DNA of 64,000 nucleotides, taken from positions 3,733-67,732 of the forward strand of contig JAZQIW010000046.1 in NCBI GenBank assembly GCA_045541355.1. The letters are read 5' to 3'. This document shows, piece by piece, positions 23,266 through 63,400 of this stretch. How positions within the stretch are numbered: position 1 is the stretch's first letter; the number at the start of each line of letters is the position of its first letter. The notes under the pieces were generated by a model that ran no database searches, was not told where the DNA came from, and saw only the letters and a list, made by a program, of their open reading frames with translations. Source of the DNA: Eubacteriales bacterium. Its GTDB lineage: Bacteria > Bacillota > Clostridia > Oscillospirales > CAG-382. Both the position numbers and the translations under genes were made by a program.

Positions 23266-26200
23266 TTATTTGGTTTTGATATTTATGTTCATGCCGTCGA
23301 TGCTGTAACTGAAGCCTGTGTATTCGCAGAATGCAGAAAGCTCGATAAGAGGAAGATTGTCGTAGGAGCTGAGAGGCTTCTTGAGCTTTATCTCTTTGCC
23401 GTCGGAAAGCTTTACAATGTCGCTTCCCTCTGTCCAGTAGCTCTTTATATCATCCTTCTGAATCATAACCGTTCTTGTCTCGACATCCCATTCGTGATAT
23501 GTGCGTGTGAGAGCGCAGAAGTCGCGAAGCGGCTCAAAGGGTACGTAAGCCTCGCCGTTTTCCACGGTGGACTTGAAGTGACAGCTGTATCTTACGCCGT
23601 CAATATATGTAGTATAAACCTCTTTGTCGCCTGCAAGGAAGAGGATTTCTTCAACCTCGAATTTGCCTATGTTGTTGCAGGGGTCAAAACGGAACGCCTT
23701 GATTTTTCCACGCCAGTTTTGGTCCATAGAGGGAATCATAACGGCATAGCCGTTGTCGTAATCCATCGGGTTAAGCTGCTTGTTGAAATGCCATTCGCCG
23801 TCAGTGTCGGTAATGTAGTGGCAGACGAGTGTTGCTGAGTTGACGGATGCGTTTGCAAAGTCTCCGCTGCCGTTTGAGCCGCGCATTTTGAACTTGATGA
23901 CGGCAACATCATCGGCATTGATATCAACCTCAGTTATAAGCTTTGGATCATCACCTGTGGATTCGCCGTAAAGCTTTCCGTCACGAAGCTCTACTAAGCC
24001 TTCACCGTCAAAATTCCATTTATCAATTTTTTCCTTTGTATCAAAGTCAATTTTCAGAACAACCTCGCCGTTGTCATTGTAAATCTTTTCTTTCTGAGGT
24101 GTCTGAATAATTGCGCGTGGTCTCGGATAGAGATAGCCGAGTCTGTCAAGACCGTCACCCGAGGGTCTGTCGGATTCAAAGTCATCGCCCTCTACCGTAA
24201 ATGCACGCCTTACCTCATTAAGGTATCCAAAGCCATTGATGTTGGAGGGACACATGATAGTACCCTCGCCGTATTCGTTCCAGGTTGCCAGCATTACGAA
24301 CTTCTTCTTCCATGTTTCTTCGTCGTTCTCGTACTTGGGAAGAACGTCGTCTCTCATCCATGTAAGCATCTGTCCAAATTCCTCCTGCGTTGTGAAGGGG
24401 GAACGGAATTCACGCCAAGCAACGTCGTTGTAGCCAACGCAGGCGGTGGGAACGACATGAAGCTTGTCTTGAGTCATCTGCGATTCGATTCTCGATTTTG
24501 TATATTCAAAGCTGTAACTCTGATGTCCCCAGTTGTAGGCATAAACTGCATCTACACCTGCTTTGTAAAGCTCATTTGAGGGCTCGCCGCAGGTCATTAC
24601 AATAAGACCTTCATAACCTATTCCCTTCAGCACCTCTTCGAGATAGTCAAGGGCAATCTTGAAGGTTTCGGGGCTTCCCATGGATGCAACGGCTTTATTT
24701 ACTCCGAATATGGAAAGAACAGCCTTGCCGTCAATTTTGTAGTAATTGGGATGAGAGAAGTAGTGGTCAACCCAGTAGGGAACAAGGTACTTCTTGAAGC
24801 CGTCAAGGTCAGGACTTGAGGCATTGGCAGCTTCCCAGATGAGGGCAAAGTTCATTTCGTCACAGTACTTTGCATTGAAGTATCCGTCATCGAGAGCACC
24901 GCAGATGTGTGTCTTGAATATGGGCGCCTTTGTCTGATTGTCAAACCAGCAGTAGAACTGAGCATTAATGCCGTGTTCCACCATCCACTTGATTTCCCAG
25001 TCGGCAACCTCTGTTAAAGGCTCGTCGTAGTAGCCGAGGAAGGTTTTGTTTTCATCAAAGGAGGAAATGGCATCCCAGCCCCAATGCTCACCGTTTCTCC
25101 AGAGGGAGCAAACGTTGATACCTGTTGTATAGCCGTTTTTCATGGTGGGTCTTACGGGAGGCTTGGGGTAGTCCTCGGGCTCAGGCTGAATAACAAAGGC
25201 ATAAACATCGGTAAATCTCATGTAGCCGTCATGCTCGGGGGCGTAGGTTATGGAAATACCGTCAAAGAAATTGCAGTCCTTTTCAAAAGCAATCTCGCCG
25301 CACTTTACTCCGTTGTGCTTGATAAGAGCCTTGTGAGTTGCAGTGTCGGCTTCAATTCTCATAAACTGCCATACGTAGGGAAGATGCTCACGAAGAACTT
25401 TACCGCGTGCGGTTGCAGATTTTGTACCGTGCTCGATAACCGTAACAACATCCTCCTCGCCGTTAGTGAGAGAAAGAATGAGATTTTCGCCGTCATTTTG
25501 CTTTGTGAGATATTTAAGCTCAAAGCAAACCTTACCCTCTGCCTTTTCAAAGGGATGGTAAGCACATACCGTGGAGCCGCCCTCAGCATGAAGAGCGTAG
25601 GTGGTTTCGGGCGTACCTTCGTAATATCTTGAGGTAAAGGCATTTGCATTGCCCTCGGCAAAGATAAGCCAGTCGTCGGGCATGGAACCGTTTACGGGAT
25701 TAAGATTACGGTCGCAAACAAGATAGTTTATGTTAAGGACAACCTTGAAAACCTCAAGCTCACCGACAGCTTCTGCGTCATAACCTAACTTCAAGGAAGC
25801 AAGACTGCCTGCCGAAAGGGGAAGGAACGCACAGTCCTTGCCGCCAAGAGAGAGAAATGCCTGTTTTTCGTCAAGATCAAAATCTATTGTAATATACTGA
25901 AGACCGTGAAGGAAGGGCGCGGGAATAACAGTATCGCCGCAAACGAGGCTAAAGCCTTTTTGCTTTAAAACAAGAGTCTCCTTATCGTTTGTGTCATAGA
26001 AGGAAAGAGTAAAGCCGTCGCCGCTTCTGAGTGCCATTGTGAGGGCAAAGCTTGCCTTTCCGCCTCTTAAGGGAAGAAATCTTCTTCTCATGGAAACGGG
26101 ACCTTCGTGCTCCTTATCCGTGGAGATAACAAAGCTTCTGCCAAACTGGTGAACGGCGGGGTTTATTGCGCCTCTCGAGTCATAGTCCCAACCCGATGGA

Positions 26201-26277
26201 ACGGGATGATAATGCGTTCTTACCATGTCGTCATCAATGAGGTAAACCGCATTTTTTGTGGTGCGTGTATCTATCAT
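23266..26277 (-). CDS. 1003-aa multidomain protein with a central GH99-like/WbsX-family domain
   Basis: The central region is paralogous to the ORF at 53337-54446: HGINAQFYCWFD vs HGVNVFIYDWYWFD, FSHPNYYKIDGKAV vs FSHPSYYKIDGKPV, and TWNEYGEGT vs SWNEWTETS. No signal peptide. The N- and C-terminal domains are unassigned. Confidence 0.55.
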   Translation of the reverse strand: MIDTRTTKNAVYLIDDDMVRTHYHPVPSGWDYDSRGAINPAVHQFGRSFVISTDKEHEGPVSMRRRFLPLRGGKASFALTMALRSGDGFTLSFYDTNDKETLVLKQKGFSLVCGDTVIPAPFLHGLQYITIDFDLDEKQAFLSLGGKDCAFLPLSAGSLASLKLGYDAEAVGELEVFKVVLNINYLVCDRNLNPVNGSMPDDWLIFAEGNANAFTSRYYEGTPETTYALHAEGGSTVCAYHPFEKAEGKVCFELKYLTKQNDGENLILSLTNGEEDVVTVIEHGTKSATARGKVLREHLPYVWQFMRIEADTATHKALIKHNGVKCGEIAFEKDCNFFDGISITYAPEHDGYMRFTDVYAFVIQPEPEDYPKPPVRPTMKNGYTTGINVCSLWRNGEHWGWDAISSFDENKTFLGYYDEPLTEVADWEIKWMVEHGINAQFYCWFDNQTKAPIFKTHICGALDDGYFNAKYCDEMNFALIWEAANASSPDLDGFKKYLVPYWVDHYFSHPNYYKIDGKAVLSIFGVNKAVASMGSPETFKIALDYLEEVLKGIGYEGLIVMTCGEPSNELYKAGVDAVYAYNWGHQSYSFEYTKSRIESQMTQDKLHVVPTACVGYNDVAWREFRSPFTTQEEFGQMLTWMRDDVLPKYENDEETWKKKFVMLATWNEYGEGTIMCPSNINGFGYLNEVRRAFTVEGDDFESDRPSGDGLDRLGYLYPRPRAIIQTPQKEKIYNDNGEVVLKIDFDTKEKIDKWNFDGEGLVELRDGKLYGESTGDDPKLITEVDINADDVAVIKFKMRGSNGSGDFANASVNSATLVCHYITDTDGEWHFNKQLNPMDYDNGYAVMIPSMDQNWRGKIKAFRFDPCNNIGKFEVEEILFLAGDKEVYTTYIDGVRYSCHFKSTVENGEAYVPFEPLRDFCALTRTYHEWDVETRTVMIQKDDIKSYWTEGSDIVKLSDGKEIKLKKPLSSYDNLPLIELSAFCEYTGFSYSIDGMNINIKTK

Positions 26278-26452
26278 TTTACACAGCTCCTTTCGCCTTG
26301 AAATTGAGTGTTATTCTCTAAAACTCAACCAAATTATAAAATAATTGCCTTTAAATTGCAACCCTATTTTGTCTTTTTTGTCATTTTTTATAATACATTT
26401 TGTATATCTGCGACAAAACACAATAGCACAATTCTGTACATTTAAACGAAAA

Positions 26453-26464
26453 GAACGTTTGTTC
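26453..26464. promoter_or_regulatory. LexA (Cheo/DinR) box 1: GAACGTTTGTTC
   Basis: Perfect GAAC-N4-GTTC core, 11 nt upstream of the -35 hexamer. Confidence 0.7.
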
Positions 26465-26475
26465 TAATTTTTTCA

Positions 26476-26504
26476 TTGACTATTTGGCAAAAATGTGGTA
26501 TAAT
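26476..26504 (+). promoter_or_regulatory. sigma-A promoter (TTGACT-17-TATAAT, TG-extended)
   Basis: TTGACT at 26476-26481 and TATAAT at 26499-26504, with TGTGG just upstream. Confidence 0.7.
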
Positions 26505-26518
26505 ACAATCACGATATC

Positions 26519-26530
26519 GAACACGTGTTC
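26519..26530. promoter_or_regulatory. LexA box 2: (C)GAACACGTGTTC(T)
   Basis: Perfect GAAC-N4-GTTC palindrome 15 nt downstream of the -10, over the expected transcription start region. Confidence 0.75.
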
Positions 26531-26566
26531 TTTCGGCTCAGCCGATATATTTTTTATCGCAAAATA

Positions 26567-26578
26567 GAACGGATGTTC
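26567..26578. promoter_or_regulatory. LexA box 3: GAACGGATGTTC
   Basis: Perfect GAAC-N4-GTTC core in the leader, 12 nt upstream of the AAGGAGG ribosome-binding site. Confidence 0.65.
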
Positions 26579-26603
26579 TAAAAAGCATTAAAGGAGGACG
26601 TCA

Positions 26604-26795
26604 ATGGAAAAAGACAAAAATGAGTATTTTGAAGCTGTCCATCATTACACGGTCTGTGCCCAGTGCGGATATAGATTTGTAAGCGGCGATGAGGCACTGG
26701 TTGTAAAGCAGACGGGGGATATGATACATAGAGACTGCTATATGGACTATAACGAGGATAACATGAATGAGCTGTGTGAGAGCATTGAGTATTGA
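26604..26795 (+). CDS. 63-aa Cys/His-containing protein of unknown function (first gene of the cluster)
   Basis: AAGGAGG lies 6 nt upstream of the ATG. CAQCG...HRDC spacing suggests a small zinc-binding fold. Confidence 0.5.
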   Translation: MEKDKNEYFEAVHHYTVCAQCGYRFVSGDEALVVKQTGDMIHRDCYMDYNEDNMNELCESIEY

Positions 26796-26811
26796 AGGAG
26801 GGAGCTTTAGG

Positions 26812-27204
26812 TTGGCGGCAAGGAAAAAGGAGAGGTATCTTGACCTTGAGGAAAGGATAAATGACTATTTTAAATACTGTGACAGCATCAATGAGGAGCA
26901 TGGGGAGATAGTAAAGCCCTACACTCTTTCGGGGCTTGTGTGTCACCTTGGATTTACGAGGGAGGAATTTGAAAAGCTTTCAAGGATTAAGAGAAACGAG
27001 AGAATTGTGCTTCGTGCCAAGGCAAAAATTGAAGCGTTTATTGAGGAGAATGCACTTACGGGAGAGCTTTCGGTAAACGCTTCGGCAAACAGCTTGAAAT
27101 TTAATTTCGGTTGGGGGGATAAGGGCGAGGCTAAGCCTTCTGAGACGGCTGAAAAGAATATTGTTGTGAGCCTTTCGGAACAGGCAGCCGAGCTTGCAAG
27201 ATAA
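26812..27204 (+). CDS. terminase small subunit (putative)
   Basis: TTG at 26812 lies 7 nt after GAAGGAGGGAG and just after the upstream stop. The sequence INDYFKYCDSINEE...KPYTLSGLVCHLGFTREEF is typical of phage small terminases, and the gene sits directly before TerL. Confidence 0.65.
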   Translation: MAARKKERYLDLEERINDYFKYCDSINEEHGEIVKPYTLSGLVCHLGFTREEFEKLSRIKRNERIVLRAKAKIEAFIEENALTGELSVNASANSLKFNFGWGDKGEAKPSETAEKNIVVSLSEQAAELAR

Positions 27205-27209
27205 GAATT

Positions 27210-28526
27210 ATGAAGAAAAGCAGCCTCTGTAAGCAGCTTGTTCTTTCGGGTGAGCCACAGGAAAAGCAACGACGTTTTTTTCTTGCCGATACAAAGTATG
27301 TTGCCTACGGCGGTGCAAGAGGCGGAGGCAAAAGCTGGGCACTCAGACGAAAGCTTGTGCTGCTTGCACTCAATTACACCGGCATTAATCTTTTGCTTAT
27401 AAGGCGCACCCTTCCCGAGCTTCGTGAAAATCACATAAGACCGCTACTGTCCGAGCTTTCCGAATTTTGCAGCTATTCCGAAATGAAAAAATGCTTTGTG
27501 TTTCCCAACGGCAGCAGACTGAGACTCGGTTATCTCGACAGCGACGGTGACCTTTTGCAGTATCAGGGACAGGAATATGACATTATAGCAATTGATGAGG
27601 CGACACAGCTGAGTGAATACCAATTTCAGACGCTTAAAGCCTGTCTCAGAGGTGCCAATTCCTTCCCTAAACGAATGTACATTACCTGCAACCCCGGCGG
27701 TGTCGGTCATGCATGGGTAAAGCGGTTGTTTATTGACAGAGAGTTTCGCGAGGGTGAGCATCCTGAGGATTACACCTTTATTCAGGCACTTGTCTACGAT
27801 AATGAAGTCCTGCTTCGCCAAAATCCCGATTATCTTGAGCAGTTAAAGAGCCTTCCCGAGTCACTTAAGGGCGCATGGCTGTGCGGAATGTGGGACGAAT
27901 TTGAAGGACAGTTCTTTAATGAATTTGATTATTCGGTGCATACCGTTTCGGATTATGATATACCCGAAGGGTCGCTCAGATATTGTGCAATAGACTACGG
28001 TCTTGATATGCTTGCGGCGGTGTTTGTGGCGGTAACGCCCGAGGGAAGATGCGTTGTGTATGATGAAATACATAAGGAAAACTTGATTGTCAGCCAAGCA
28101 TCGGGGCTCATAAGGCAGAAGGCTTTTGGGGTAAGCATGTATATTGCGCCGTCTGATTTGTGGTCAAGACAGAAGGACAGCGGTAAGAGTATAGCAGAGC
28201 TTTTCGGTGAAAACGGTGTGTATCTGACAAAGCTTAAAAGCGACAGAATCGGCGGCTGGATGTGCTTAAAGGAATTTTTGAAGGTAGAGGATGGCAGGTC
28301 AAGGCTGATAATAAAGAGATGCTGTGTAAATCTCATTCGATGTATGCCGCTGCTTTTGCATGACAGGCACAGAATAGGGGATGCTGCCACAAAGCCGCAT
28401 AATATAACCCATGCGCCGGATGCGCTGAGATATTTTGCCGTTTCACGCTACGGTGATTTTTACGGCGAAAAGCAAAAGACAAGTACAAAAAAGCTTAAGG
28501 AAATGATAAACAGAAAAAGGAGATAA
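27210..28526 (+). CDS. terminase large subunit
   Basis: Walker A YGGARGGGKSW, Walker B YDIIAIDEATQL, and a C-terminal RNaseH-like nuclease part (CAIDYGLDM, HAPDALRY); 438 aa. Confidence 0.88.
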   Translation: MKKSSLCKQLVLSGEPQEKQRRFFLADTKYVAYGGARGGGKSWALRRKLVLLALNYTGINLLLIRRTLPELRENHIRPLLSELSEFCSYSEMKKCFVFPNGSRLRLGYLDSDGDLLQYQGQEYDIIAIDEATQLSEYQFQTLKACLRGANSFPKRMYITCNPGGVGHAWVKRLFIDREFREGEHPEDYTFIQALVYDNEVLLRQNPDYLEQLKSLPESLKGAWLCGMWDEFEGQFFNEFDYSVHTVSDYDIPEGSLRYCAIDYGLDMLAAVFVAVTPEGRCVVYDEIHKENLIVSQASGLIRQKAFGVSMYIAPSDLWSRQKDSGKSIAELFGENGVYLTKLKSDRIGGWMCLKEFLKVEDGRSRLIIKRCCVNLIRCMPLLLHDRHRIGDAATKPHNITHAPDALRYFAVSRYGDFYGEKQKTSTKKLKEMINRKRR

Positions 28527-28529
28527 CAC

Positions 28530-30287
28530 ATGAAGGGAAAAAACTACGAAAAAAACATATCCCGTTCCGGGATGTACTCATATTCGTCACGTCTTGAAAG
28601 AGAGGAAACAATTGCCTTTCTTTATGATTATGCCGCAAAGCATAAGCGTGATGTCGGGGAATACTGGAAGAAAATGAAGAGATATTACGACGGAAGGCAT
28701 GATATTTCACTTTCCACCGATGCCTTTTCGGCAAGGGAAGGTCTGCCCTTTAAGGCGGCTGAGTGCACAGACGGCTACATTCACGTCGAAACACAAATCA
28801 ATCACAATGTTCCCGATTTTGAATTCTCACCGCGAGACAGAACAGACTATGATAAAGCAAAGCAGAGAGAAAAGATAGTAAAATACGTAGTTGACAATGC
28901 CGGCCTTGAAGGTAAAAACTCCCGCAACGAAAGACGCCTTAACATATACGGCTCGGCAATCTGGAAGGTGTGCTGGGACTCGGGAATAAGAATCGGCAAG
29001 GATTTGGGAGACGTTACGGTTGAAAACCCGAGACCCGAGGAAATAATTACCGACCCTACTGCCTGTGATGTCGATTCCTGCGAATATATTGCTTATGTTT
29101 ATCCCATGCACAAGATGCGTGCAAAGAGAGTATTCGGCGCAGATATAAAGTCTGAGGGAAGTGATTTTTCGGAGTATCTCTGCGACGATATGACCAAAAA
29201 TCCTCTCGGCTACGTTTCCTCTGACAGATACGATACCGATGACGATACCGTAAATATCACCGAATGGTGGTACAGACAGCCGAGTGACGGCAGCGCCGAC
29301 ATTACAAGGCTTGTGAACGGGGAAAAGAGAGTGTACCGTTATGAGTGGAAGGCTGGAGATATTGCCCTTTCGGTGCTTATAAACGGAAAGGAAGTAAGGT
29401 ACATACCAAAGTATTGGAAGAACACAGACTGCCGCAGCTTTCCCTTTGTTGTTTACAGCAAGATACCCAACGAAAAAAGCATCTGGGGTAAGAGTGAGCT
29501 TGAAATGCTGATTCCCCTTATTGACGCCAAGGACAGAGAGCTTTGCTTTGCACAGCTCAACGGGGCGTATTCTTCAAACGATATAATTGTCATGGAGGAA
29601 AATGCTCTTTCCGACGGTGAAAGCCTTGATAATTCTCCCGGTGCCGTCTGGAAGCTGAGACCGGGAATGATGGGCAAGGTCTCAAGACTTGGAAATCTTT
29701 CGTCAGCATCTGCCGCTTTATATGAAGGCTCTTCCTTCTGGCAGAGCATGATTGAAAGCACAACAGGCATCTTTGAAGTAAATCAGGGAAAAGAACCCAC
29801 AAACGTTACAACTGCCACGGGTATTGCGCTTCTTAACGAAAGAGCCGAGAACCGAAAGAGCATTAAGAATATTGACAGAAATGCGGGCTTTAAGCGTCTT
29901 TATATGCTTATAGACTATACCTGTCTTGAGAATTACAACGACGGCAGAATAATAAGAATGGGACTTGAGGAGGGCGAAGATGTTGTATACAGCTTCGGAG
30001 GCTTTATGAGAAAGTCGAGACAGGGCTCATACATACCCGAGCTTGATGTTACAATTCACACAGGCTCTGCCATTACAAACTCAAAGGCATTTACCGTTTC
30101 TGCCCTTACGTCGCTTATCGGTACCGATATAAACGAGACGAATTACAGACTTGTAAAGGCATATGTTGAGGCAATCGGAATACCCGAAAGGTCGGAGATT
30201 TGCGAAAGCCTTGACAGGCAATTTGAAAAGGCAGATATTAATCAGGACAACAGCGACAGCCCGGAAGGAGAAATGAATGATGAATGA
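28530..30287 (+). CDS. portal protein (putative)
   Basis: 585 aa, immediately downstream of TerL and upstream of the scaffold-like gene. The call rests on position and size; I could not verify a diagnostic motif by eye. Confidence 0.6.
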   Translation: MKGKNYEKNISRSGMYSYSSRLEREETIAFLYDYAAKHKRDVGEYWKKMKRYYDGRHDISLSTDAFSAREGLPFKAAECTDGYIHVETQINHNVPDFEFSPRDRTDYDKAKQREKIVKYVVDNAGLEGKNSRNERRLNIYGSAIWKVCWDSGIRIGKDLGDVTVENPRPEEIITDPTACDVDSCEYIAYVYPMHKMRAKRVFGADIKSEGSDFSEYLCDDMTKNPLGYVSSDRYDTDDDTVNITEWWYRQPSDGSADITRLVNGEKRVYRYEWKAGDIALSVLINGKEVRYIPKYWKNTDCRSFPFVVYSKIPNEKSIWGKSELEMLIPLIDAKDRELCFAQLNGAYSSNDIIVMEENALSDGESLDNSPGAVWKLRPGMMGKVSRLGNLSSASAALYEGSSFWQSMIESTTGIFEVNQGKEPTNVTTATGIALLNERAENRKSIKNIDRNAGFKRLYMLIDYTCLENYNDGRIIRMGLEEGEDVVYSFGGFMRKSRQGSYIPELDVTIHTGSAITNSKAFTVSALTSLIGTDINETNYRLVKAYVEAIGIPERSEICESLDRQFEKADINQDNSDSPEGEMNDE

Positions 30288-31209
30288 TGTTGTAAACGAA
30301 AAGGTAACAAAAACCGAGAATATGTCGGTTGATTGTGACACAGCAGCCGAAAACGGCTTTGAAAATATACAAAGTACAAAGAATGAGAAAACCTTTACCC
30401 AAAGCCAGCTTGAGGAGATTATATCCGAAAGGCTGTCAAGGGAAAGAAGGGTGAACGAGTCCCTTTCGGATGTGAAAAAGCTGCTTAAAGGCGCAGCTCA
30501 AAAGGGACTTCTCAAGGGAACGTCATATGCCGAAATGGCAAGAGAGCTTGTGAGCCAGCTTTCGGCGGAGACGGAAGGAGCTGTGGAAAAGAACACACGG
30601 GAGCATACCGAAGTGCCTGAAAAAACGGTGTCTGAAACAGAAGAGGAGCCCTTTTCTGAGGATGACAGGGTTGGTGAGCAGAATCAGGAAAATGTCGGTA
30701 TTCCCGAGGATGAAAACTTTGCGGCCGCAGACGCAAAGGAGCATGACGCACAGAGCGGTACGGTGTCGGACAGCACTTTAAGCAAAGAGAGTACGCAAAG
30801 AAAAGAAGAAGCCGATGTAATGAAAGGCTTTTTTGAAATACTCTCCGCAATCAGGGAAAAACACGGGAAAGAGGGCGTGGAAAAGCTTATGCAGGCGGAA
30901 CTCTTTGAAAGCTTTGCCAAGGGCAGAAGCGGCAGCATAGGCGATATTTTCTCGGATTTTTGCAGCTTTATGGATGCACTTGGCACCGGTAATGCTGCTG
31001 CAGATAAAACCGAGGCACAGGGGGACAGAATCGACAGCGATTTTTCATCCACAGCCTTTTCGGCACACTCTGCAAGCACGGTATCGGCGAAGGATTCGCT
31101 TACAAAACAGCAGATGGAAATAGCAAGGAGCGCGGGAATGTCCTACCGCGAATATGCAGAGCTTTTAGGCTCTATTCCATCGGGAAAAAGAGGGACAAAA
31201 AATAATTAA
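30277..31209 (+). CDS. scaffolding-like acidic protein (putative)
   Basis: Overlaps the portal-gene stop by 11 nt. Highly acidic and predicted helical. The stretch FTQSQLEEIISERLSRERR resembles phage scaffold (DUF4355-type) N-termini. Confidence 0.5.
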   Translation: MMNDVVNEKVTKTENMSVDCDTAAENGFENIQSTKNEKTFTQSQLEEIISERLSRERRVNESLSDVKKLLKGAAQKGLLKGTSYAEMARELVSQLSAETEGAVEKNTREHTEVPEKTVSETEEEPFSEDDRVGEQNQENVGIPEDENFAAADAKEHDAQSGTVSDSTLSKESTQRKEEADVMKGFFEILSAIREKHGKEGVEKLMQAELFESFAKGRSGSIGDIFSDFCSFMDALGTGNAAADKTEAQGDRIDSDFSSTAFSAHSASTVSAKDSLTKQQMEIARSAGMSYREYAELLGSIPSGKRGTKNN

Positions 31210-31224
31210 AAAAGGAGACAGAAT

Positions 31225-31866
31225 ATGAAGTTTTTATATGGACTCGGGGGCGCAAATGTTCCCGTGATCAAGGAGTTTGATATTGACCCCGCAACAAAAA
31301 TCAATGCAGGAAGTGCTGTTTCTATTACCTCCGAGGGAAAGGTGACAGAGACAATCAGCGGTGCTGTTCTCGGCGTTTGTGCCGAAAATCACCCGGGGAA
31401 AGAGGATATGCTCAATAAAAGAGCAAACGGTAACAGAGTAAGAGTTGATATCACAAGCGGCGGAGTATACAGCATAAAGTTTCCCGAATTTGAGGCTGTA
31501 TTTGGCGGTGTCGAAAACACTTTTTCAAGTGATAGTACAAATCTTTCCTCTATCGGAAAGGGTGCAAGATTTGTGCTTGTGAAAAAGGCGGCGGATTCCA
31601 CAAATACAGATAAGATAGGAACTGTAAGAGAGGCTATCTCCGCCGACTTTGGAAGCAACGGAAATTTCGAGTTTGTTTTCAACGACGGCGGCACACCGTC
31701 AAAGGGTGATGTATACGCGTATATTACCCCTGTCGGCTCTTCTGCAGTTGTCTGCGACGGATACAGACTCGACATTTCGGGTGTCGGCAGCGGTGCCAAG
31801 GTTGTCGGCTGCGATGAAAAGAACAGAATGGCACACATTGTATTTACAAACAAAGTGTTTGCATAA
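31225..31866 (+). CDS. 213-aa head-module protein of unknown function (decoration/auxiliary capsid protein?)
   Basis: AAGGAGA ribosome-binding site. Gly/Val-rich and beta-like in composition. Lies between the scaffold-like and capsid-sized genes. Confidence 0.4.
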   Translation: MKFLYGLGGANVPVIKEFDIDPATKINAGSAVSITSEGKVTETISGAVLGVCAENHPGKEDMLNKRANGNRVRVDITSGGVYSIKFPEFEAVFGGVENTFSSDSTNLSSIGKGARFVLVKKAADSTNTDKIGTVREAISADFGSNGNFEFVFNDGGTPSKGDVYAYITPVGSSAVVCDGYRLDISGVGSGAKVVGCDEKNRMAHIVFTNKVFA

Positions 31867-31884
31867 AAGAAAAAAGGAGACGAT

Positions 31885-32808
31885 TTGATGAACGATATTT
31901 ATACATGGCATAATGACCTCTATCCTCTTATTAAGAAGAGATTTGATTTAAGATACGCAAAGCGTCTTGATGTCATCAATCAGGTGTGCGACGTTGTGTG
32001 TCAGGATGATATTGATTACCGCATTGAAGGTATCGGCGGCTACGGCGAAATGCCCGTATATGACGGCACTGTTGTTGCCAACGCCGACAGCAAGCGTACC
32101 TTTATTACAACAATTACACCCAAGGAGCACGCTCTTAAGGTGACAAGCACCTATAAGAAGGCAAAGCTTGATTACTCGGGCGAATCAAAGAAAATCGGCA
32201 CACGCCTTGCGGATTCGGCATATATGACCGTGCTCAACGAATTCTACCGCCTTTTCGGCTCTGCATTTACAAATGAGGGTGCCGACGGCGAGCCTTGGGC
32301 AAGTAAGTCCCATCCCGTAAGCTGTGAGGGGGATAACGGCACATTTTCAAACCTTATCGAGGAGGAGCTTTCTGTTGCCGCAATCACAAAGGCTCAGACC
32401 ATGTCCTCCCGTTATATTACACCCGACGGTCTTCCCTTTGCCTGCAATATGGACCTTCTTCTTGTAAGCCCTGAGCTTGAGGCAAAGGCAAAGGAAATCT
32501 GCGGTCCCAATGCAAAGCTTATTCCCGAAAACAATCCTGATGAAACGGCAGGCTGCAATGCGGCAAATCCCGTTTACGGCATGAAGTATCTTGTTGTGGG
32601 CGGCGGTGAAGCAGGCTTTTGCGGCAAGCAGTGGGCGGTTGCGGATTCGCTCATGCTTTCCGAGGTATTAAAGCTTGTATATATTACAAAGCCTACCGTT
32701 CTTGTTTCTCCCCAGGACAACCCCCTTATAACCGACTATATCGGTTATGTGGACTTTGCTTTCGGTTTTGGTGATGCAAGACCCATTATTTTCTCAAATC
32801 CCGCATAA
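31885..32808 (+). CDS. major capsid protein (putative)
   Basis: 307 aa with an AAGGAGA ribosome-binding site, positioned after the scaffold-like gene and followed by a strong hairpin. The call rests on synteny and size. Confidence 0.55.
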   Translation: MMNDIYTWHNDLYPLIKKRFDLRYAKRLDVINQVCDVVCQDDIDYRIEGIGGYGEMPVYDGTVVANADSKRTFITTITPKEHALKVTSTYKKAKLDYSGESKKIGTRLADSAYMTVLNEFYRLFGSAFTNEGADGEPWASKSHPVSCEGDNGTFSNLIEEELSVAAITKAQTMSSRYITPDGLPFACNMDLLLVSPELEAKAKEICGPNAKLIPENNPDETAGCNAANPVYGMKYLVVGGGEAGFCGKQWAVADSLMLSEVLKLVYITKPTVLVSPQDNPLITDYIGYVDFAFGFGDARPIIFSNPA

Positions 32809-32830
32809 GCGAAGGGGTTAAAAAACGTTT

Positions 32831-32859
32831 GAAAGCCGTCCGCAAAGCGGGCGGCTTTC
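32831..32859 (+). other. stable 13-bp hairpin without U-tract between the capsid-sized gene and distal genes
   Basis: GAAAGCCGTCCGC-AAA-GCGGGCGGCTTTC with one G-U pair, followed by GTGAAAGGAG rather than a T-run. Confidence 0.6.
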
Positions 32860-32875
32860 GTGAAAGGAGATTTTA

Positions 32876-33802
32876 ATGTCAGCTAATAATACATACGCTT
32901 GCTTTAAAAGGCGGGTATATCAGGTGCTTGATGAATACTTTGATAATACGGATGAGGTGTTTGTAAGCGATTCGAGAAGAGACAGGCTGGATGCAAAAAT
33001 GGCAGACACGCTTGGGTGGGGGCTTTGCCGTATGTATGAGGGACTTCCCAAAAAAACGGGCAGCAAAAAGGTGGAGGTAAACCTACCGAGAAGGCTTGCG
33101 AGCAGGGAAGAAATGAATTACGGCGGAATATTTGAGTTTTCACCCGTAACCCGTCCTCTTGCGGTTATTTTTGAATATACGGGCTCAGGAAGCCTTTTGC
33201 TTTGCGACGAGGATTTGGTGCCGGTTTTCACCCTTGAGCTTGACGGAAGTGAAGGCAGGCTTGAAACAAAAAGGTTTTTCACCGATAATGTATCCTCTGC
33301 CATTTGCTACGCCTATGTGACGCAAAGTGTCTGTGCACGAAAGTTCACGATATATGACAAGGGAAATATGACAAACATATTTGAGATACCGAGAAAAGGA
33401 ATGTGCTCCTTTGCCGTCGGGGATGACTGCGGCAGAATAAAGGCAATGGAAATGCTTTCGGGAAAGCAGGTAAACCTTGGCAGTCTTGAGCTTTCCAATG
33501 ACTTTGGGTATCTTGATGCCGATAACCGTTATGACGGGGAGATTGTGGCTCTGACATATGAAAAGAAGGCTCCCGAAATTTCGGAAAATGTGCCCGATGA
33601 CTTTGAAATTCCTCTTTGCGGCACAGAATTTGATGCCCTTGTGAGCCTTTGTGCGGCAGAGCTTTGCAGGTCGGAGGACAGCAATCTGTACGAGAGGCTT
33701 TTGCAAAAGTACAAGGATTTGTACGAGGGACTGTGGTCTTTTGCAAACAAAACAATACAGCGAAACGGCTTTTATACGGCTGTAAACAGAAGGCGGTGGT
33801 AA
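32876..33802 (+). CDS. 308-aa protein of unknown function
   Basis: AAAGGAGA ribosome-binding site. Intact ORF with host-like codon usage. I recognise no motif. Confidence 0.5.
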   Translation: MSANNTYACFKRRVYQVLDEYFDNTDEVFVSDSRRDRLDAKMADTLGWGLCRMYEGLPKKTGSKKVEVNLPRRLASREEMNYGGIFEFSPVTRPLAVIFEYTGSGSLLLCDEDLVPVFTLELDGSEGRLETKRFFTDNVSSAICYAYVTQSVCARKFTIYDKGNMTNIFEIPRKGMCSFAVGDDCGRIKAMEMLSGKQVNLGSLELSNDFGYLDADNRYDGEIVALTYEKKAPEISENVPDDFEIPLCGTEFDALVSLCAAELCRSEDSNLYERLLQKYKDLYEGLWSFANKTIQRNGFYTAVNRRRW

Positions 33803-33803
33803 T

Positions 33804-35594
33804 ATGGGACATATTCCTTGTACTGTAATAAAACCAAAGACTACGGGCAACAGACGCTTTCGATTTGATGCACCCGTAAAGGGCTTAAGGCTGAGTGAAA
33901 AGGATACAAGCTTTGCCGAGGGCACCTGCCGAGAACTGTATAACATGGATATAGGCACAGGCAGTATTGAAAGCTCGGGGGAGAAGAAAAGGCTGTTTGA
34001 AGGCATCAATACCTCGGGCATTGCTCTTCACAGCATTACAAAGCAGGGGTATATGGGAAGTGTTTTTTTGCATCTCGGAAGCTGTCTTTACCGATATGAC
34101 ACAGCTTTGGATAAGCCCGTACTTGTTTCAGACAGCCTTCCCGATAAGCACAGCGTTATGTGCGTATTCATGTCCTCGCTCTATATATACTGCGACACGT
34201 ATGTTTACAGGGTTGATTCGGACTTTATGTTTTACGAGGAATACCCCGATGCACCCCTTCTTTTTACGAATGTTGACCCGGTTCTTGCGAGGGATTCCGA
34301 AAGACTTCCTGATGTTCCGCTAAACCTTCTTGCCCCGAGAATTAAGGTGAGATATAAGGCATCCGACGCTCTGCTTTATATACTCCCCCTATCTATGAAC
34401 GCCAAGAGAAAGCCGAAGGTTTTTGTCAACGGCATAGAGCTTGAGGAAGGCAGATTTACCTATCAGATTGACAGGGTTCAGCTTGCCCACGGCTCAGACA
34501 CAATGGCGGCAAAGTTTGTTGAAGTGGAATACTATGTTTTGGCACCCAATGTCATAGGCTATGAGCCGTATTTCTATAATTGCACGACAGCATCCTCGTA
34601 CGGAGGAGAGGGAATATCGGGGAACCGCCTTTTCTTTTCGGGTGACAGGCAGAAAAAGGGGGCGTGCTATAAAAGCGAACACAGAAATCCTTTGTATTTT
34701 GGCGAGAACGAACAGTTTGTAATCGGCGACGGATATGATAATGTTACGTATCTTGGCAGAATGTATTCCGACCTTATAGTTCTTTCTGAGCTTGGAACAT
34801 ATAAGATTACAAGCTTTATTGAGGATGAAATTGAGGTCTTTAAAACAAAGCAGATAAGCGGCGAAATTGGCTGCGATATGCCTGAAAGTGCCTGCCTTGC
34901 AGATAACAGAATAGTGTTTGCCAACTCAAAACGCGGAATTTTCATTGTGGATTTCAATGAGGACTATCAGGAGCACAACGTAAAGCCTGTTTCAAGGAAT
35001 ATTGAAAGAGGCAAGGGAATGGGACTTCTTGAAAACAGCAAGGAGGAGCTTATAAAGGCAGAGGGCATTGACCTTGACAGAAAGTATCTGCTTTTGTGCG
35101 GTGACAAGCTTTATATATGGGACTACGATAAGTGCAACTACTATGATACCGGCAATTTTAACGAATCCCAGACAAGGCTTGTATACAGCATCTATAAAGA
35201 CGTAGGATGCGACGGTATGTTTGCAATTGACAGCATGGCGGTAGTATACAAAAAGGATATCCTTGAGGCATATGTCTTTGATACTTCTTTAAGAGAAAAG
35301 CAAAGCGGCTTTGAAACGGGGGAATGTGATTTCGGCGAGCCGTCACTCAGAAAGCTTGTTAAAGATATGCATTTTGTGGTGCGTGCAGACGAGGGCGCGG
35401 TGCTTACCTTAAAGCTTTTTGCAGACGGGGTTTGTTATTATGAAAGAAGTATAGCCTTTACTCAAAGGAAAACCGTGAGAATAAAAGAGGTTATACCCAA
35501 GAATGAAATGTTCACCCTGTCCTTTGCAATTGATGCAGAAGGCGGAGGCTTTGAATTCTTTTCTGCAACGGCAGTTTACAGTATCATAGAATAA
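33804..35594 (+). CDS. 596-aa protein of unknown function (repetitive beta-rich sequence)
   Basis: The start lies 1 nt after the upstream stop, implying translational coupling. Recurrent aromatic/Gly-Asp segments (LYIYCDTYVYRVD, GDKLYIWDYD) suggest a beta-propeller or beta-sandwich fold. I recognise no motif. Confidence 0.5.
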   Translation: MGHIPCTVIKPKTTGNRRFRFDAPVKGLRLSEKDTSFAEGTCRELYNMDIGTGSIESSGEKKRLFEGINTSGIALHSITKQGYMGSVFLHLGSCLYRYDTALDKPVLVSDSLPDKHSVMCVFMSSLYIYCDTYVYRVDSDFMFYEEYPDAPLLFTNVDPVLARDSERLPDVPLNLLAPRIKVRYKASDALLYILPLSMNAKRKPKVFVNGIELEEGRFTYQIDRVQLAHGSDTMAAKFVEVEYYVLAPNVIGYEPYFYNCTTASSYGGEGISGNRLFFSGDRQKKGACYKSEHRNPLYFGENEQFVIGDGYDNVTYLGRMYSDLIVLSELGTYKITSFIEDEIEVFKTKQISGEIGCDMPESACLADNRIVFANSKRGIFIVDFNEDYQEHNVKPVSRNIERGKGMGLLENSKEELIKAEGIDLDRKYLLLCGDKLYIWDYDKCNYYDTGNFNESQTRLVYSIYKDVGCDGMFAIDSMAVVYKKDILEAYVFDTSLREKQSGFETGECDFGEPSLRKLVKDMHFVVRADEGAVLTLKLFADGVCYYERSIAFTQRKTVRIKEVIPKNEMFTLSFAIDAEGGGFEFFSATAVYSIIE

Positions 35595-35623
35595 AAAAAC
35601 CGCAGGCACAGCCTGCGGTTTTG
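35593..35623. terminator. bidirectional rho-independent terminator
   Basis: AAAAAAA-CCGCAGGC-ACA-GCCTGCGG-TTTT, lying between convergent genes. Confidence 0.85.
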
Positions 35624-35636
35624 TGTATGAAAAAGC

Positions 35637-36809
35637 TTAGATTTCAGGAATTACGATGTCGATTTCCTTGCCGATACTGTGGCTCTTTGCAATACCGTCG
35701 ATAATTGCCTGATTGTAGAGAATCTGGCTTGAAGGAACGGGTGCGCCGAGGGAAGGATTGTCAATGGCATCAAGGAAGCTGCGAAGCTTCTTGTCGAAGA
35801 GGCTCATGCCGCTGTAATCTTGGAGAATCGGCACCTTTGTTTCAACCTGAGCACCGGCTACGTTCTTGTAGATTGTCATTTCGCCGCCAACAGAGCCGTT
35901 CCAGCAGTCTGTGGAGGGGATTCTGAGACCGCCCTCTGTGCCGAGGATGATTGTATCGCCGGGGGTGTTGATGTTCATTGCCCATGCAATTCTGAAGTCG
36001 AGTATAATGCCGCCTTCAAGTCTTACGAATGCTGCCGCAAAGTCGTCTACACCGAAGATGTCTGCATATTCTGCAGGTCTGCCTTCTTCAGAGAAGGTCT
36101 TGGGGTTCTTTCCAAAGAAGTCGGACTTATAACCCGAAACCGTCAAAGGCTTAGGATAGCCGATTGCGTTGAGAACCATGTCAAGGCTGTAACAACCGAT
36201 ATCGCCGAGAGCACCGATGCCGCCCTTGTCCTTTTCGATAAAGGATGTGCCGAAGGGGGTGGGAATACCGCGTCTTCTTCCGCCGCCTGTCTGTATGTAG
36301 TAAACCTTGCCAAGCTCGCCTGATTCAACAATCTTCTTAATCATCTGCATATTGGGGTCAAGTCTTGGCTGGAAGCCGATGGTAAGAATCTTGCCGCTCT
36401 TCTTTTCCGCTTTCATAACCTCAATTGCTTCTTCAAGTGTAACTGTGAAGGGCTTTTCAAGCATTACGTTGATACCTGCCTCAAGTGCACGAATAGCACA
36501 GGGCGCGTGCTGGCAGTTGTAAGTACAGATGCTTACACCGTCAAGCTCCTTTTCGTTTGCGAGAAGCTCCTCGTCGCTGTTGTAGCAACGTGCTTCAACA
36601 CCAAATCTCTTGAAAAAAGCCTCTGCCTTGCCGGGTATAAGGTCTGCACCCGCAACAACTTCAACATCGGGCATATTCATATATGATTCCATATGTGCTT
36701 CTGCAATCCAGCCTGTACCGATGATGGCGATTTTGTACTTTCTGCCGGATGTTTTTACTTCCTTTGCACCTGTCTGGTTGGGGTCAAGGTTTGTATTTGA
36801 TATAGCCAT
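35637..36809 (-). CDS. Gfo/Idh/MocA-family NAD(P)-dependent oxidoreductase
   Basis: N-terminal Rossmann motif KIAIIGTGWIAEAH; 390 aa with a typical family C-terminal domain. Confidence 0.85.
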   Translation of the reverse strand: MAISNTNLDPNQTGAKEVKTSGRKYKIAIIGTGWIAEAHMESYMNMPDVEVVAGADLIPGKAEAFFKRFGVEARCYNSDEELLANEKELDGVSICTYNCQHAPCAIRALEAGINVMLEKPFTVTLEEAIEVMKAEKKSGKILTIGFQPRLDPNMQMIKKIVESGELGKVYYIQTGGGRRRGIPTPFGTSFIEKDKGGIGALGDIGCYSLDMVLNAIGYPKPLTVSGYKSDFFGKNPKTFSEEGRPAEYADIFGVDDFAAAFVRLEGGIILDFRIAWAMNINTPGDTIILGTEGGLRIPSTDCWNGSVGGEMTIYKNVAGAQVETKVPILQDYSGMSLFDKKLRSFLDAIDNPSLGAPVPSSQILYNQAIIDGIAKSHSIGKEIDIVIPEI

Positions 36810-60315: not shown

Positions 60316-60344
60316 TTGCAAAAAAATAACACTTGTATTATGAT
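60316..60344 (+). promoter_or_regulatory. sigma-A promoter (TTGCAA-17-TATGAT)
   Basis: TTGCAA at 60316-60321 and TATGAT at 60339-60344, about 60 nt upstream of the S-layer-type gene. Confidence 0.5.
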
Positions 60345-60403
60345 AATATCGTAACAAAACTAAAAGTTTTGCTATACAAAAAATTTACAGGAGGTAACTC
60401 ACC

Positions 60404-63400
60404 ATGAGAAATTTCAAGAAATTTCTTACACTCGTTCTCGCAGTAATGATGGTAGTAAGCGCAATGTCCTTCTCCACATCTGCAGCAAGAACAGTATTTG
60501 AGGACGTTGACACAGAAAACGAAGTACTCGTTGACGCTGTTGACCTTCTCAGCTACATGGAGATTACAAAGGGTAAGGACGGCACAACATTCGGTGCTGC
60601 CGAAGACGTTACTCGTGAGCAGTTCGCTCTCTTCATGTACAGACTTATGAAGGGTGGCAAGGATGCTCCTAATGACTATCCTAACACCACAAGCTTTAAG
60701 GATCTCGATGATCCCACTTACAACTATGCTATCAGCTGGGCAAACGCAGTTGGTATCGTAAAGGGTAAGTCTGAAGAAGTTTACGGTCCTAAGGACTCCA
60801 TCACACTTCAGGAAGCTTACGCAATGGTAGTTCGTGCACTCGGTTATGAAGATGCAGAAGCTCTTGCATATCCTTACGAACACATCACACTTGCTGAAAG
60901 AAAGGGTATCGAACTTGACACAGGTCTCGATTCCGACATCGACTATGAAGAAAAGCTCACAAGAGCTGACATGGCGATCATCCTTTACAACGCATTCTTC
61001 GCTGAAACAGCTGAACCCGAAATCTACACAGTAGAAAGAGGCATCGGCTACGTTGAGGGTTATGACCGTGTAACAGGCGAACCCCTTTACAGCGACTATG
61101 TACTTGAAGAATGCATCGAATACCCCAGACTTTGCGAAAAGGCATTTGGCGTATACGAAGCAACATATCAGGTAGTTGCTACTCCTAACTATGAGTATGC
61201 AGGTATGGTAAATGAGGATGACCTCGACGGTTACTATGACTTCGAAGCAACATATGATATCGGCTACGAAGCAGCTCAGGTAATGCTCACATACACAACA
61301 TCCAACGCTAGAATCAGAGAATACGTTCCCGGTATTGCTTACCTCGAACCCGAACAGCTCGGTCTCGAATCCGGCGAACTCGATGCTTGGTTCCTCGGTC
61401 ACTTCACAACATTCGTAACAATCGTTGACGAAAAGGCTGACGACAAGGAAATCGAAAAGGTTCTCTTCGCTGACTGTGACATGGTTAAGAAGACAGTTAC
61501 AGACATCGAACTCAGCGTAGTATCTTCCAACAAGGCAGATAGCTACTATGTAGACGAAAACAACGCTAAGGTTGACGAAGACGGCAACCCTGAAATCGAA
61601 ATCAACGAAGAAGGCGATCCCGTTGTTGATTACAAGCGCGGCGACAAGCTTCTCTCCGGTGAAATCGTTGCAGGCGAAGAAAAGATCTACGTTTACAACG
61701 CACCCTACAACTACACAAAGGTTTCCTACGAAGCTGAACATTCTGATGCTCTTTCCAGATATCTTGAAAGAAACAGCGACAACCTTAAGGGTATCGGCCT
61801 CCTCATGAATGAAGCTGACGGCGGCGACATCAACTACTACACAGCACTCAGCTATCCTCTCGTAACACCTATCAGCTACACAGATGAAGATGCTGAAGTT
61901 GTTAAGGACGGCTTCTTTACACAGCAGGCTATCGACCTCCTCAACGGCTACACAGTAGTAGACGACGACGACAAGATGGCAGAAGTTGGCTTCGCTGGCT
62001 TTGAACAGGTTTACTATGATGGTCTCTACGAAGCAGAACTTATCGACTGCGACGGCGACGACAGATATGAATTCATTAACTACAAGCCTTACAGCCTCTT
62101 CCAGGTTGATGCAGATGAAGAAAAGCACTTCGTTGATGACAACGATTTCGATGAAATCGCTGAAAACATCGTTGATGAAATTCCTTACATCTACACAAAC
62201 GGCGCAACAGTTACAGGTGCTTCCTTCGATAACGAAGACTACGTAATCGGTTACTATTCTGAAGAACTCGAAGTAGTTAAGGTTGTTGAAGTTATCAAGC
62301 CCACAATCGCAAAGATCAAGAACATTAAGTTCAACACAGGTAAGCTCGTACTCGGCGACGGCACAAACGTTGACGCAGTAAGCGGCTGGAAGTATGTTGC
62401 TAACAAGTTCCCCATGGGTCCCGTTATCAATGGCGACCTCGAATTCGAACTTGATGTAAACGGCGACAACGTATACGATGTATACAGCGGTATCGTATTC
62501 GACGAAGATGCTCAGGTAGCATACGAAGTAGCAGCAGGCGACCTCTTCGATGAAGACTTCATCGGTGAAGAAGTTGAGCTCTACATCTACAACGGCGTTG
62601 TTCTTCACAACAAGCCCGTTGACAAGAACCTCAAGTTCACAGAAAACCTCGTTATTCCCACAACATTTGAAGGCGAAAAGCCTGTAAGATGGGTATTCGA
62701 CAAGGATCTCGGCACAGATGTTTACTACATCTACGCATGGATCGATGGCGCTGAAAGATACATCCCCGTTGATTACGAAGATGTACTTCCCGAAATCATC
62801 AATCCTGAAGATGATGAAGACCTCACATTTGATTACGAAGATCAGCTCTGCGTATACACACTCACAGACGGTGTTTACTCCATCAAGTCTCTTGGTTATG
62901 ACATCAACGATGACTACGATGAAGATGAAGACGAAGCTCCTGAATACCTCGGCGTAATCAAGGGTACAGAAGTTGAACTCAAGGAAGAAACAGTTGACGC
63001 TGTTGAATACACACTCGAAGGCGACGACGAAAACGCTCAGTACTTTGTTCCTAGACAGGAAGGTCTCGGCCTCAAGAAGGTTGCAGGCTCCAGATTCCAG
63101 TTTGTAGACGCTGATGGCAATAAGGTTAAAGATTTCGCAACTGACGTTGAAGACGAAACAGTTGAACTCGACTTCAAGCTTGACTTCAAGGCATACACAA
63201 AGATCGTTGTAAGACAGGAAGTTGATGACGACGAATACGAATTCGTTGAACTCGACGCTGCTGACTTCACAAAGAGCATGGAAGGCGTATTTGATACAGT
63301 TACATTCATCGTATCCAATAACCCTGAAAGCGAATCCAGAGAAAACCTCGTAGTTCTCTACGCTACAACAACAGAATTCGAATTCAAGGGCACAGTTGAT

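Follow-up and report, generated by a model that had tools for sequence, protein, structure and literature searches.

The human gut commonly contains capsid-packaged bacterial DNA with the signatures of gene transfer agents (GTAs), above all from Oscillospiraceae and Ruminococcaceae, and GTA-type packaging has been seen in Oscillospiraceae and other taxa where no element was found (PMC12946183). Only one responsible gut element is known, FpGTA of Faecalibacterium prausnitzii, and its trigger is unknown (PMC12946183). Operon I of FpGTA produces 40-nm podovirus-like particles with about 9 kb of host DNA, and a second operon, at a distance of 125 kb, encodes fibres and lysis proteins (Borodovich et al., Nat Commun 2026; PMC12946183). 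The FpGTA paper contains no promoter, LexA or SOS analysis (PMC12946183). Here we describe an operon of podovirus-type head, packaging and nozzle genes in a 64-kb stretch of DNA from a Eubacteriales bacterium (contig JAZQIW010000046.1; "the window" is this whole stretch of 64,000 nucleotides). Its promoter and leader carry three predicted operators of LexA, the SOS repressor. The reading that we favour, with a probability of roughly 0.75, is that LexA locks the promoter and leader of a chromosomally fixed, podovirus-derived GTA-like operon, and that DNA damage opens it.

In design the cluster resembles FpGTA operon I. Both are about 10 kb long with about 10 open reading frames (ORFs), both begin with the small terminase subunit (TerS), the large terminase subunit (TerL) and the portal, and both also encode a capsid and a tail nozzle. 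Both stand alone in the chromosome of a gut Oscillospiraceae/Ruminococcaceae host, without replication or lysogeny genes, and the best PDB match of the nozzle is P22 gp10 (8eap) in either case. However, the FpGTA capsid is annotated as belonging to the N4-gp56 family, whereas the capsid here falls close to Phage_capsid_4 and Mu gpT. Portal and capsid genes are also separated by different gene sets in the two elements, and particles have been shown for FpGTA, whereas here only genes were read. Neither N4-gp56 nor any other NCBIfam capsid model matched six capsids that span the family at E up to 10, and none matched the window capsid at E up to 0.01. Our scan of one genome per GTDB species returned no Faecalibacterium locus. 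Because the capsid model was unmatched, in a comparison made without Faecalibacterium sequences, we file the cluster as FpGTA-like and not as a member.

A precedent for the proposed regulation is GIL01, a tectivirus of Bacillus thuringiensis, in which LexA and gp7 repress the damage-induced late promoter P3 via tandem boxes of the GAAC type (Fornelos et al. 2018, PMC6182141). Hence, the principle of direct LexA control of virion genes is already known. GIL01 is likewise a Firmicutes phage-type element without a dedicated repressor that leaves its virion-maturation genes to host LexA. It is, however, a replicating temperate phage that needs the co-repressor gp7 and the LexA-like activator gp6. 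The cluster described here contains no co-factor gene, is apparently fixed in the chromosome and has three separated putative operators, one of which seems to be coupled to a terminator.

RcGTA of Rhodobacter capsulatus, other alphaproteobacterial GTAs and PBSX of Bacillus subtilis are likewise domesticated, vertically inherited head and packaging clusters under host regulators. Production of RcGTA is influenced by SOS or LexA, the latter acting indirectly through CckA. PBSX is inducible by mitomycin C and has an Xre repressor of its own. Their particles are siphovirus- or myovirus-like, whereas here we find a podovirus-like core and predict direct LexA operators on the structural promoter. 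What would be new is direct LexA control of a host-fixed GTA-like cluster, kept over dozens of species and equipped with an operator-coupled terminator.

Predicted LexA boxes at the operon promoter

The three perfect GAAC-N4-GTTC cores GAACGTTTGTTC, GAACACGTGTTC and GAACGGATGTTC (Table 1) are the only matches to GAACNNNNGTTC that a pattern scan finds on both strands of the window. Relaxing the last base to Y (GTTY) adds a single site, at 44739, inside a gene. Box 1 spans about -58 to -47 and is separated from the -35 element by 11 bp. Box 3 lies 11 nt past the T-run of the leader and about 11-12 nt ahead of the ribosome-binding site (RBS) AAAGGAGG of the first ORF, which starts with ATG at 26604. 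The promoter has an extended -10 element (TG at 26496-26497, TTGACT-17-TGgTATAAT) and with 11/12 matches is the top sigma-70-type site in a scan of 26000-36000; transcription is predicted to start near 26511.

The preliminary description of this locus had proposed the same three cores and the same TTGACT-17-TATAAT promoter, and had placed the boxes before the -35 element, across the start site and in the leader before the RBS; the coordinates bear this out. It had also called the promoter the only one of the cluster. Between the leader terminator (see below) and the first gene, g1, there is indeed no second acceptable -35/-10 pair (the spacing would be 20 bp), although uniqueness is not provable from sequence. 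Its further judgement that such a cluster of boxes is very unlikely to arise by chance holds as well. One could argue that short palindromes are bound to gather somewhere in AT-rich intergenic DNA: shuffled windows contain on average 0.95 GAACNNNNGTTC sites per 64 kb, and 9 of 100 shuffles have at least three sites somewhere. However, all three sites here lie inside 127 bp, for which we obtain a chance of about 2e-6 (our own scan-statistic estimate, not tool output), and the comparison with relatives refutes the argument, so that chance is a negligible explanation.

For this comparison we used 60 related loci from the scan of one genome per GTDB species (written L001 and so on), and for the box statistics the 49 loci that have enough upstream DNA. 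The 20 kb of upstream regions contain 79 perfect boxes, compared with 14 in the remaining 940 kb, an enrichment of about 260-fold. Positions are conserved to the base pair. A box is found at -55 to -58 in 43 of the 49 orthologous promoters. About 21 loci have a second one at +1 to +9, which is either perfect or a single mismatch away, and a third follows further along the leader. The promoter itself is kept as a near-consensus TTGACA/T-17-TATAAT in about 44 loci. Of the boxes, the most distant clade (L045-L059) keeps the one at -57 alone; its leader is short and lacks box 2, box 3 and the terminator.

Which protein would bind these boxes? A motif built from 124 perfect or one-mismatch sites in the orthologous promoters reads AAAT(A/C)GAACAAATGTTC(T/G)AAAA. 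Position -1 is A (69 sites) or C (45), with G and T excluded, position +12 is T (61) or G (34), the spacer is A/T-rich, and GTTT, in 24 sites, is the one common deviation. The extended consensus (C/A)GAAC-N4-GTTC(G/T), with GTTT tolerated, agrees with the LexA operators of Clostridioides difficile, which were searched for with the motifs GAACnnnnGTTC and GAACnnnnGTTT and verified by surface plasmon resonance (SPR) with purified LexA, including the recA operator GAACAAATGTTT (PMC4234289).

We also searched public collections for the composite of a box, 10-11 bp and TTGACW-17-TATAAT. Among the 120 stretches listed from metagenome contigs (L099-L218), at least 12 belong to this cluster family, three have recA immediately downstream and two a lexA homologue; having been selected by the pattern itself, the lexA and recA matches speak for compatibility, not for frequency. 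The composite-bearing recA are two distinct genes on three gut-metagenome contigs, and one lexA homologue falls into a 90% cluster named by NCBI as LexA of [Eubacterium] siraeum, a member of the Oscillospiraceae. A single box, at -57, is present in the recA loci and in the lexA locus of the [E.] siraeum type; the other lexA has a second box at -27. On viral contigs (L064-L098) the genes behind the composite encode a LexA homologue, Ant anti-repressors and phage sigma factors, all of them classical SOS-gated switches. About 100 further metagenome matches could include an unlinked fibre and lysis operon of the elements described here. One could object that the SOS genes of the host might use a different consensus. 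The [E.] siraeum lexA site, selected by the pattern as it was, would answer this doubt for a close relative only.

Compared with canonical Firmicutes recA and lexA promoters, the core and the extended motif of the Cheo box are shared, and a box that ends 10-11 bp before the -35 element is shared with [E.] siraeum lexA and the gut-metagenome recA genes. The genes controlled are different, virion and packaging genes instead of repair genes, and operators at +8 and past a leader terminator do not occur in the recA and lexA promoters compared. Multiple boxes at one promoter are found at lexA of B. subtilis. The extended motif, the spacing conserved in orthologues and the geometry shared with lexA and recA strongly support what the preliminary description had proposed, namely that the palindromes are LexA operators and would place the structural and packaging genes under direct SOS control.

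Alternatively, another regulator with GAAC-N4-GTTC specificity could bind whose gene lies elsewhere, be it a dedicated repressor or a paralogue of LexA. The LexA reading rests on sequence comparison, and the host's own lexA is not in the sequence examined. Moreover, phage GIL01 encodes a LexA homologue that binds at its late promoter (PMC6182141). We nevertheless consider another regulator to be quite improbable, for the following reasons. First, the motif fits the LexA consensus including the flanks and the tolerated GTTT. Second, the geometry of the sites is identical at lexA and recA genes. Third, no regulator gene accompanies the cluster in any of the 60 loci.

A terminator possibly coupled to the third box

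The preliminary description overlooked a feature between box 2 and box 3, a hairpin (26533-26545) followed by TATATTTTTT, which together resemble an intrinsic terminator. A hairpin and a T-run are present in 27 of the 35 loci with long leaders, and their stem sequences are unrelated. RNAalifold on box-anchored leaders gave the box palindrome only, because the hairpins are out of register; each sequence was instead folded individually and compared with shuffles. The 30 nt before the T-run have a mean minimum free energy (MFE) of -8.2 kcal/mol against -3.0 kcal/mol for the shuffles (Wilcoxon p = 1e-7), and z is below -1.64 in 21 of 26 sequences. Rfam has no family that matches the leader. In 28 loci the T-run ends 11-14 bp before the next box, and the position of this module varies from +47 to +246. 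The constant gap between terminator and operator suggests that the two are coupled, with LexA-assisted termination as a possible second lock.

According to the model that we propose, LexA on box 1 in an undamaged cell would occupy -58 to -47, next to the -35 element, and LexA on box 2 would cover the initially transcribed region. On box 3 LexA would form a roadblock 11 nt past the weak leader terminator. When the active site of a polymerase is on the U-run, its leading edge should be against this LexA. Polymerases that escape from the promoter would then stall on the U-run and terminate, so that the terminator would be efficient only while LexA is present. DNA damage would activate RecA, LexA would cleave itself, and with its loss all three locks should open together and the particle genes be transcribed. 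Hence the arrangement suggests that DNA damage triggers the production of GTA-like particles. LexA binding, repression, the coupling of roadblock and termination, particle production and DNA transfer are all steps that we infer.

The main rival that we keep concerns the same leader. LexA may gate initiation while antitermination at the leader is decisive, as in the lambda PR'-tR'/Q design of an ancestral phage late operon. Relief from LexA alone would then not suffice, and an antiterminator that is unlinked or encoded by g1 would be needed. This explanation is appealing because a conserved hairpin and T-run come within 27-70 nt downstream of a strong promoter of the constitutive type, and the first gene past the terminator is a conserved small zinc-finger protein, g1. 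Caulobacter GTA clusters, too, need anti-termination. We still regard it as unlikely. The most distant clade is without the terminator and without boxes 2 and 3, but has box 1 and the operon. In the window the stem is only 5 bp long and the U-run is interrupted, hence the terminator is probably weak. The gap of 11-14 bp ties it to a LexA box, which is not what is expected of a free-standing terminator, and no Q-like gene was found in the cluster.

The operon and its host setting

Downstream of the promoter, nine tightly packed co-directional ORFs (26604-35594), all of them intact, form an operon of about 9 kb (Table 1). In all 60 loci the operon genes have the same order: zinc-finger protein, TerS, TerL, P22-type portal, two unknowns, capsid, another unknown and P22-gp10-type nozzle. 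The full set is intact in most species. The carriers are uncultured gut and rumen Clostridia of at least 60 species. There are 310 portal homologues; among the 120 listed, identities are 50-68%, and those with a named source are all from metagenome-assembled genomes (MAGs) of uncultured Clostridia or Oscillospiraceae. Compared with the window, the capsid is 52-89% identical, TerL 56-79%, the portal 42-66%, and g8 and g9 are 22-51% identical.

Table 1. Features of the operon and its control region in the window; boxes, promoter and gene functions are predictions
Feature	Coordinates	Strand	Remarks
LexA box 1 (predicted)	26453..26464	.	GAACGTTTGTTC, extended form AGAACGTTTGTTCT
Sigma-A-type promoter	26476..26504	+	TTGACT 26476-26481, 17-bp spacer, TATAAT 26499-26504
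LexA box 2 (predicted)	26519..26530	.	GAACACGTGTTC, about +8 to +19
Leader hairpin and T-run	26533..26555	+	TCGGC-TCA-GCCGA, then TATA, TTTTTT; intrinsic-terminator-like
LexA box 3 (predicted)	26567..26578	.	GAACGGATGTTC, in the leader before the first RBS
g1, 63 aa	26604..26795	+	Zinc-finger motif C-x2-C ... H-x2-C; weak Prok-RING_1 match
TerS, small terminase subunit	26767..27204	+	PF16677 GP3_package 1e-14; phrog_606
TerL, large terminase subunit	27210..28526	+	Terminase_6N, Terminase_3; phrog_979 1e-45
Portal, P22/SU10 type	28530..30287	+	PF23899, PF16510
g5, 310 aa, acidic, low complexity	30277..31209	+	No family match; kept in 51 loci
g6, 213 aa	31225..31866	+	No family or PDB match; present in 40 loci
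Major capsid protein (g7)	31885..32808	+	Weak Mu gpT and phrog_371 matches
g8, 308 aa, fast-evolving	32876..33802	+	Same position in 48 loci; faint adaptor match, E = 0.28
g9, 596 aa, podovirus tail nozzle (hub), P22 gp10 / T7 gp12 type	33804..35594	+	Fold match
Palindromic terminator, 12 bp	35596..35622	.	A and T runs on both sides; closes the operon

By its predicted fold, g9 is a tail nozzle. Its AlphaFold2 model (pLDDT 90) has its best Foldseek matches in the PDB to P22 gp10 (8u10, 8eap_D; E = 4e-18 to 7e-18), followed by the nozzles of Pa223, Sf6, GP4, SU10 and T7, and PF11134 was found in one g9 homologue. Homologues of the capsid carry PF25209 Phage_capsid_4; the AlphaFold2 model of the capsid, for which the aligned sequences did not diverge beyond 73% identity, was poor, with a pLDDT of 51. 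PDB sequence and profile searches with g6, g7, g8 and g9 gave nothing credible, matches of RSV F to the g8 profile were judged spurious, and NCBIfam had no match for g1, g5-g9 or the capsid proteins. Judging from gene position alone, g5 may be scaffold-like and g8 a head-to-tail adaptor. Gene g6 is missing from the most distant clade. The Cys and His residues of g1 are invariant, g1 is kept in all clades, and the protein could be a regulator or a partner of TerS. The stop codon of g1 overlaps the annotated terS ORF. Translation of terS probably begins at TTG 26812, behind GGAGGGAG (26797-26804), rather than at ATG 26767, in which case the overlap would vanish. The terminator that closes the operon is bidirectional and also ends a convergent host oxidoreductase gene.

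Outside the cluster, the window carries ordinary chromosomal genes of a spore-forming clostridial host, among them those for SpoIVA, Der, RecF, GyrB, an AddA-like helicase, SLH-domain proteins, glycosidases, transporters, IF-3 and L20. Integrase, repressor, Xre-type, replication and lysis genes are absent from the cluster and its flanks. Host genes flank the cluster in every locus, and there appears to be one copy per genome. The order der-addA-GT-cluster-gfo is common to the window, L001 and L004, and gfo is also downstream of the cluster in L003, L008, L010 and L013.

The genes are under purifying selection. In five unsaturated pairs dN/dS is 0.009-0.44 for all genes but one, compared with 0.055 for the host gene gfo; the outlier is terS in the pair L010/L013 (0.93, on very few substitutions). 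The capsid has dN/dS values of 0.009-0.1 and matches housekeeping neighbours in conservation (89%, compared with 86% for gfo). Among the 2.9 million viral contigs of IMG/VR there are three short fragments of the cluster only, one of which retains the host glycosyltransferase, and there is no complete phage relative. A near-identity search with the 9.4-kb cluster against 50,697 phage genomes gave no match.

Because of the host flanks, the shared synteny, the low dN/dS and the scarce viral matches, the cluster looks like a domesticated, vertically maintained, chromosomally fixed, podovirus-derived GTA-like element and not like a prophage. The preliminary description had noted that no phage CI or Xre-type repressor is encoded here, which is correct for the cluster and its flanks. 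It had pictured a phage element without a switch of its own; the missing switch stands, but the element is better described as a GTA-like cluster that appears to be fixed in the chromosome.

Some of our observations weigh against the reading of a domesticated, LexA-locked element. There are no fibre, receptor-binding or lysis genes within the 64-kb window, hence the window copy could be incomplete or reliant on unlinked loci. A coiled-coil-rich gene, g10, which follows the nozzle gene in 39 loci, is absent from the window (35594-35637), and a comparison with L001 (17156-20289) detected no remnant. In distant species the flanking genes differ. Tblastn with B. subtilis LexA and RecA had no match in the window or the 60 loci, therefore the motif assigned to this species is taken from a relative and from class-level literature. 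Finally, we know of no precedent for roadblock termination by LexA.

Could the cluster then be an ordinary decaying prophage remnant, without present function, whose boxes are relics of an SOS-inducible phage? It consists of structural genes only, lysis and fibre genes are not nearby, and in addition to g10 the window copy is without a small ORF that many relatives have between the capsid gene and g8. However, the nine ORFs are intact in the window, most of the 60 species likewise have an undamaged set, dN/dS is comparable to that of a neighbouring host gene apart from the one outlier, the capsid is no less conserved than gfo, the architecture of promoter and operators is kept to the base pair, and the locus is syntenic in related species. 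A remnant is therefore a poor explanation, and a less probable one than a different regulator at the boxes.

Slightly less probable still is that the cluster is a capsid-forming satellite (similar to cf-PICIs) or one arm of a larger mobile prophage with modules outside the window. Capsid and packaging genes with few tail genes are what capsid-forming satellites have. Yet there is no integrase, replication, alpA or attachment-site signature, the element, apparently single-copy per genome, sits between host genes in every locus and keeps its neighbours in related species, and the 2.9 million viral contigs contain next to no match.

A more specific version of the favoured reading is tentative, and we would give it somewhat less than even odds: that the promoter, gated by SOS, is the master promoter of a podovirus-derived GTA family that is inherited vertically, undescribed so far, distinct from FpGTA and widespread among uncultured Oscillospiraceae-like Clostridia of gut and rumen, and that LexA there both represses transcription and arms the terminator. 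In this version damage, for example by antibiotics or diet-derived genotoxins, would directly drive capsid-mediated export of host DNA in the gut, and through the terminator coupled to an operator the control of a lethal operon would become very tight and all-or-none. In any case the cluster is a second candidate family of gut GTA-like elements, present in dozens of uncultured species and with an explicit proposed trigger, LexA cleavage. If our reading of a LexA-locked operon is true, SOS-inducing drugs and genotoxic stress should directly raise the mobilisation of host genes by these commensals. If LexA indeed arms a weak terminator that ends 11-14 bp before its operator, a classical repressor would tighten its control in a new way.

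Some minor observations concern additional sites and the surroundings of the cluster. In L001, L003, L004 and L006 a fourth site, GAACAAATGTTT, lies 32 bp upstream of box 1 (about -89); it is lost in the window. One clade has an extra perfect box after the portal gene, at the start of g5 (L032:9740, L038:11771, L040:11814 and L041:7196), perhaps an internal operator. Additional boxes at other places in the loci were checked as possible markers of SOS genes, and none marks one.

The divergent neighbour of the cluster in the window (23266-26277, minus strand) encodes a 1003-aa protein with a WbsX-type glycosyltransferase and a C-terminal domain like the N-terminal domain of copper amine oxidases; it also adjoins the cluster in L001, L004 and L061. 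LexA control of this gene is unlikely because its promoter-like site (26361-26333) is about 90 bp away from box 1. A 756-aa ORF at 60338-62608 (minus strand) has no Pfam match. Also missing from the window are further small genes that span about 3 kb ahead of gfo in L001 and L004. In the most distant clade the nozzle gene is followed by a sigma-70 family gene of the ECF type (L045:11344-11973, and likewise in L059 and relatives), and after it come MBOAT and DHHW genes that probably belong to the host.

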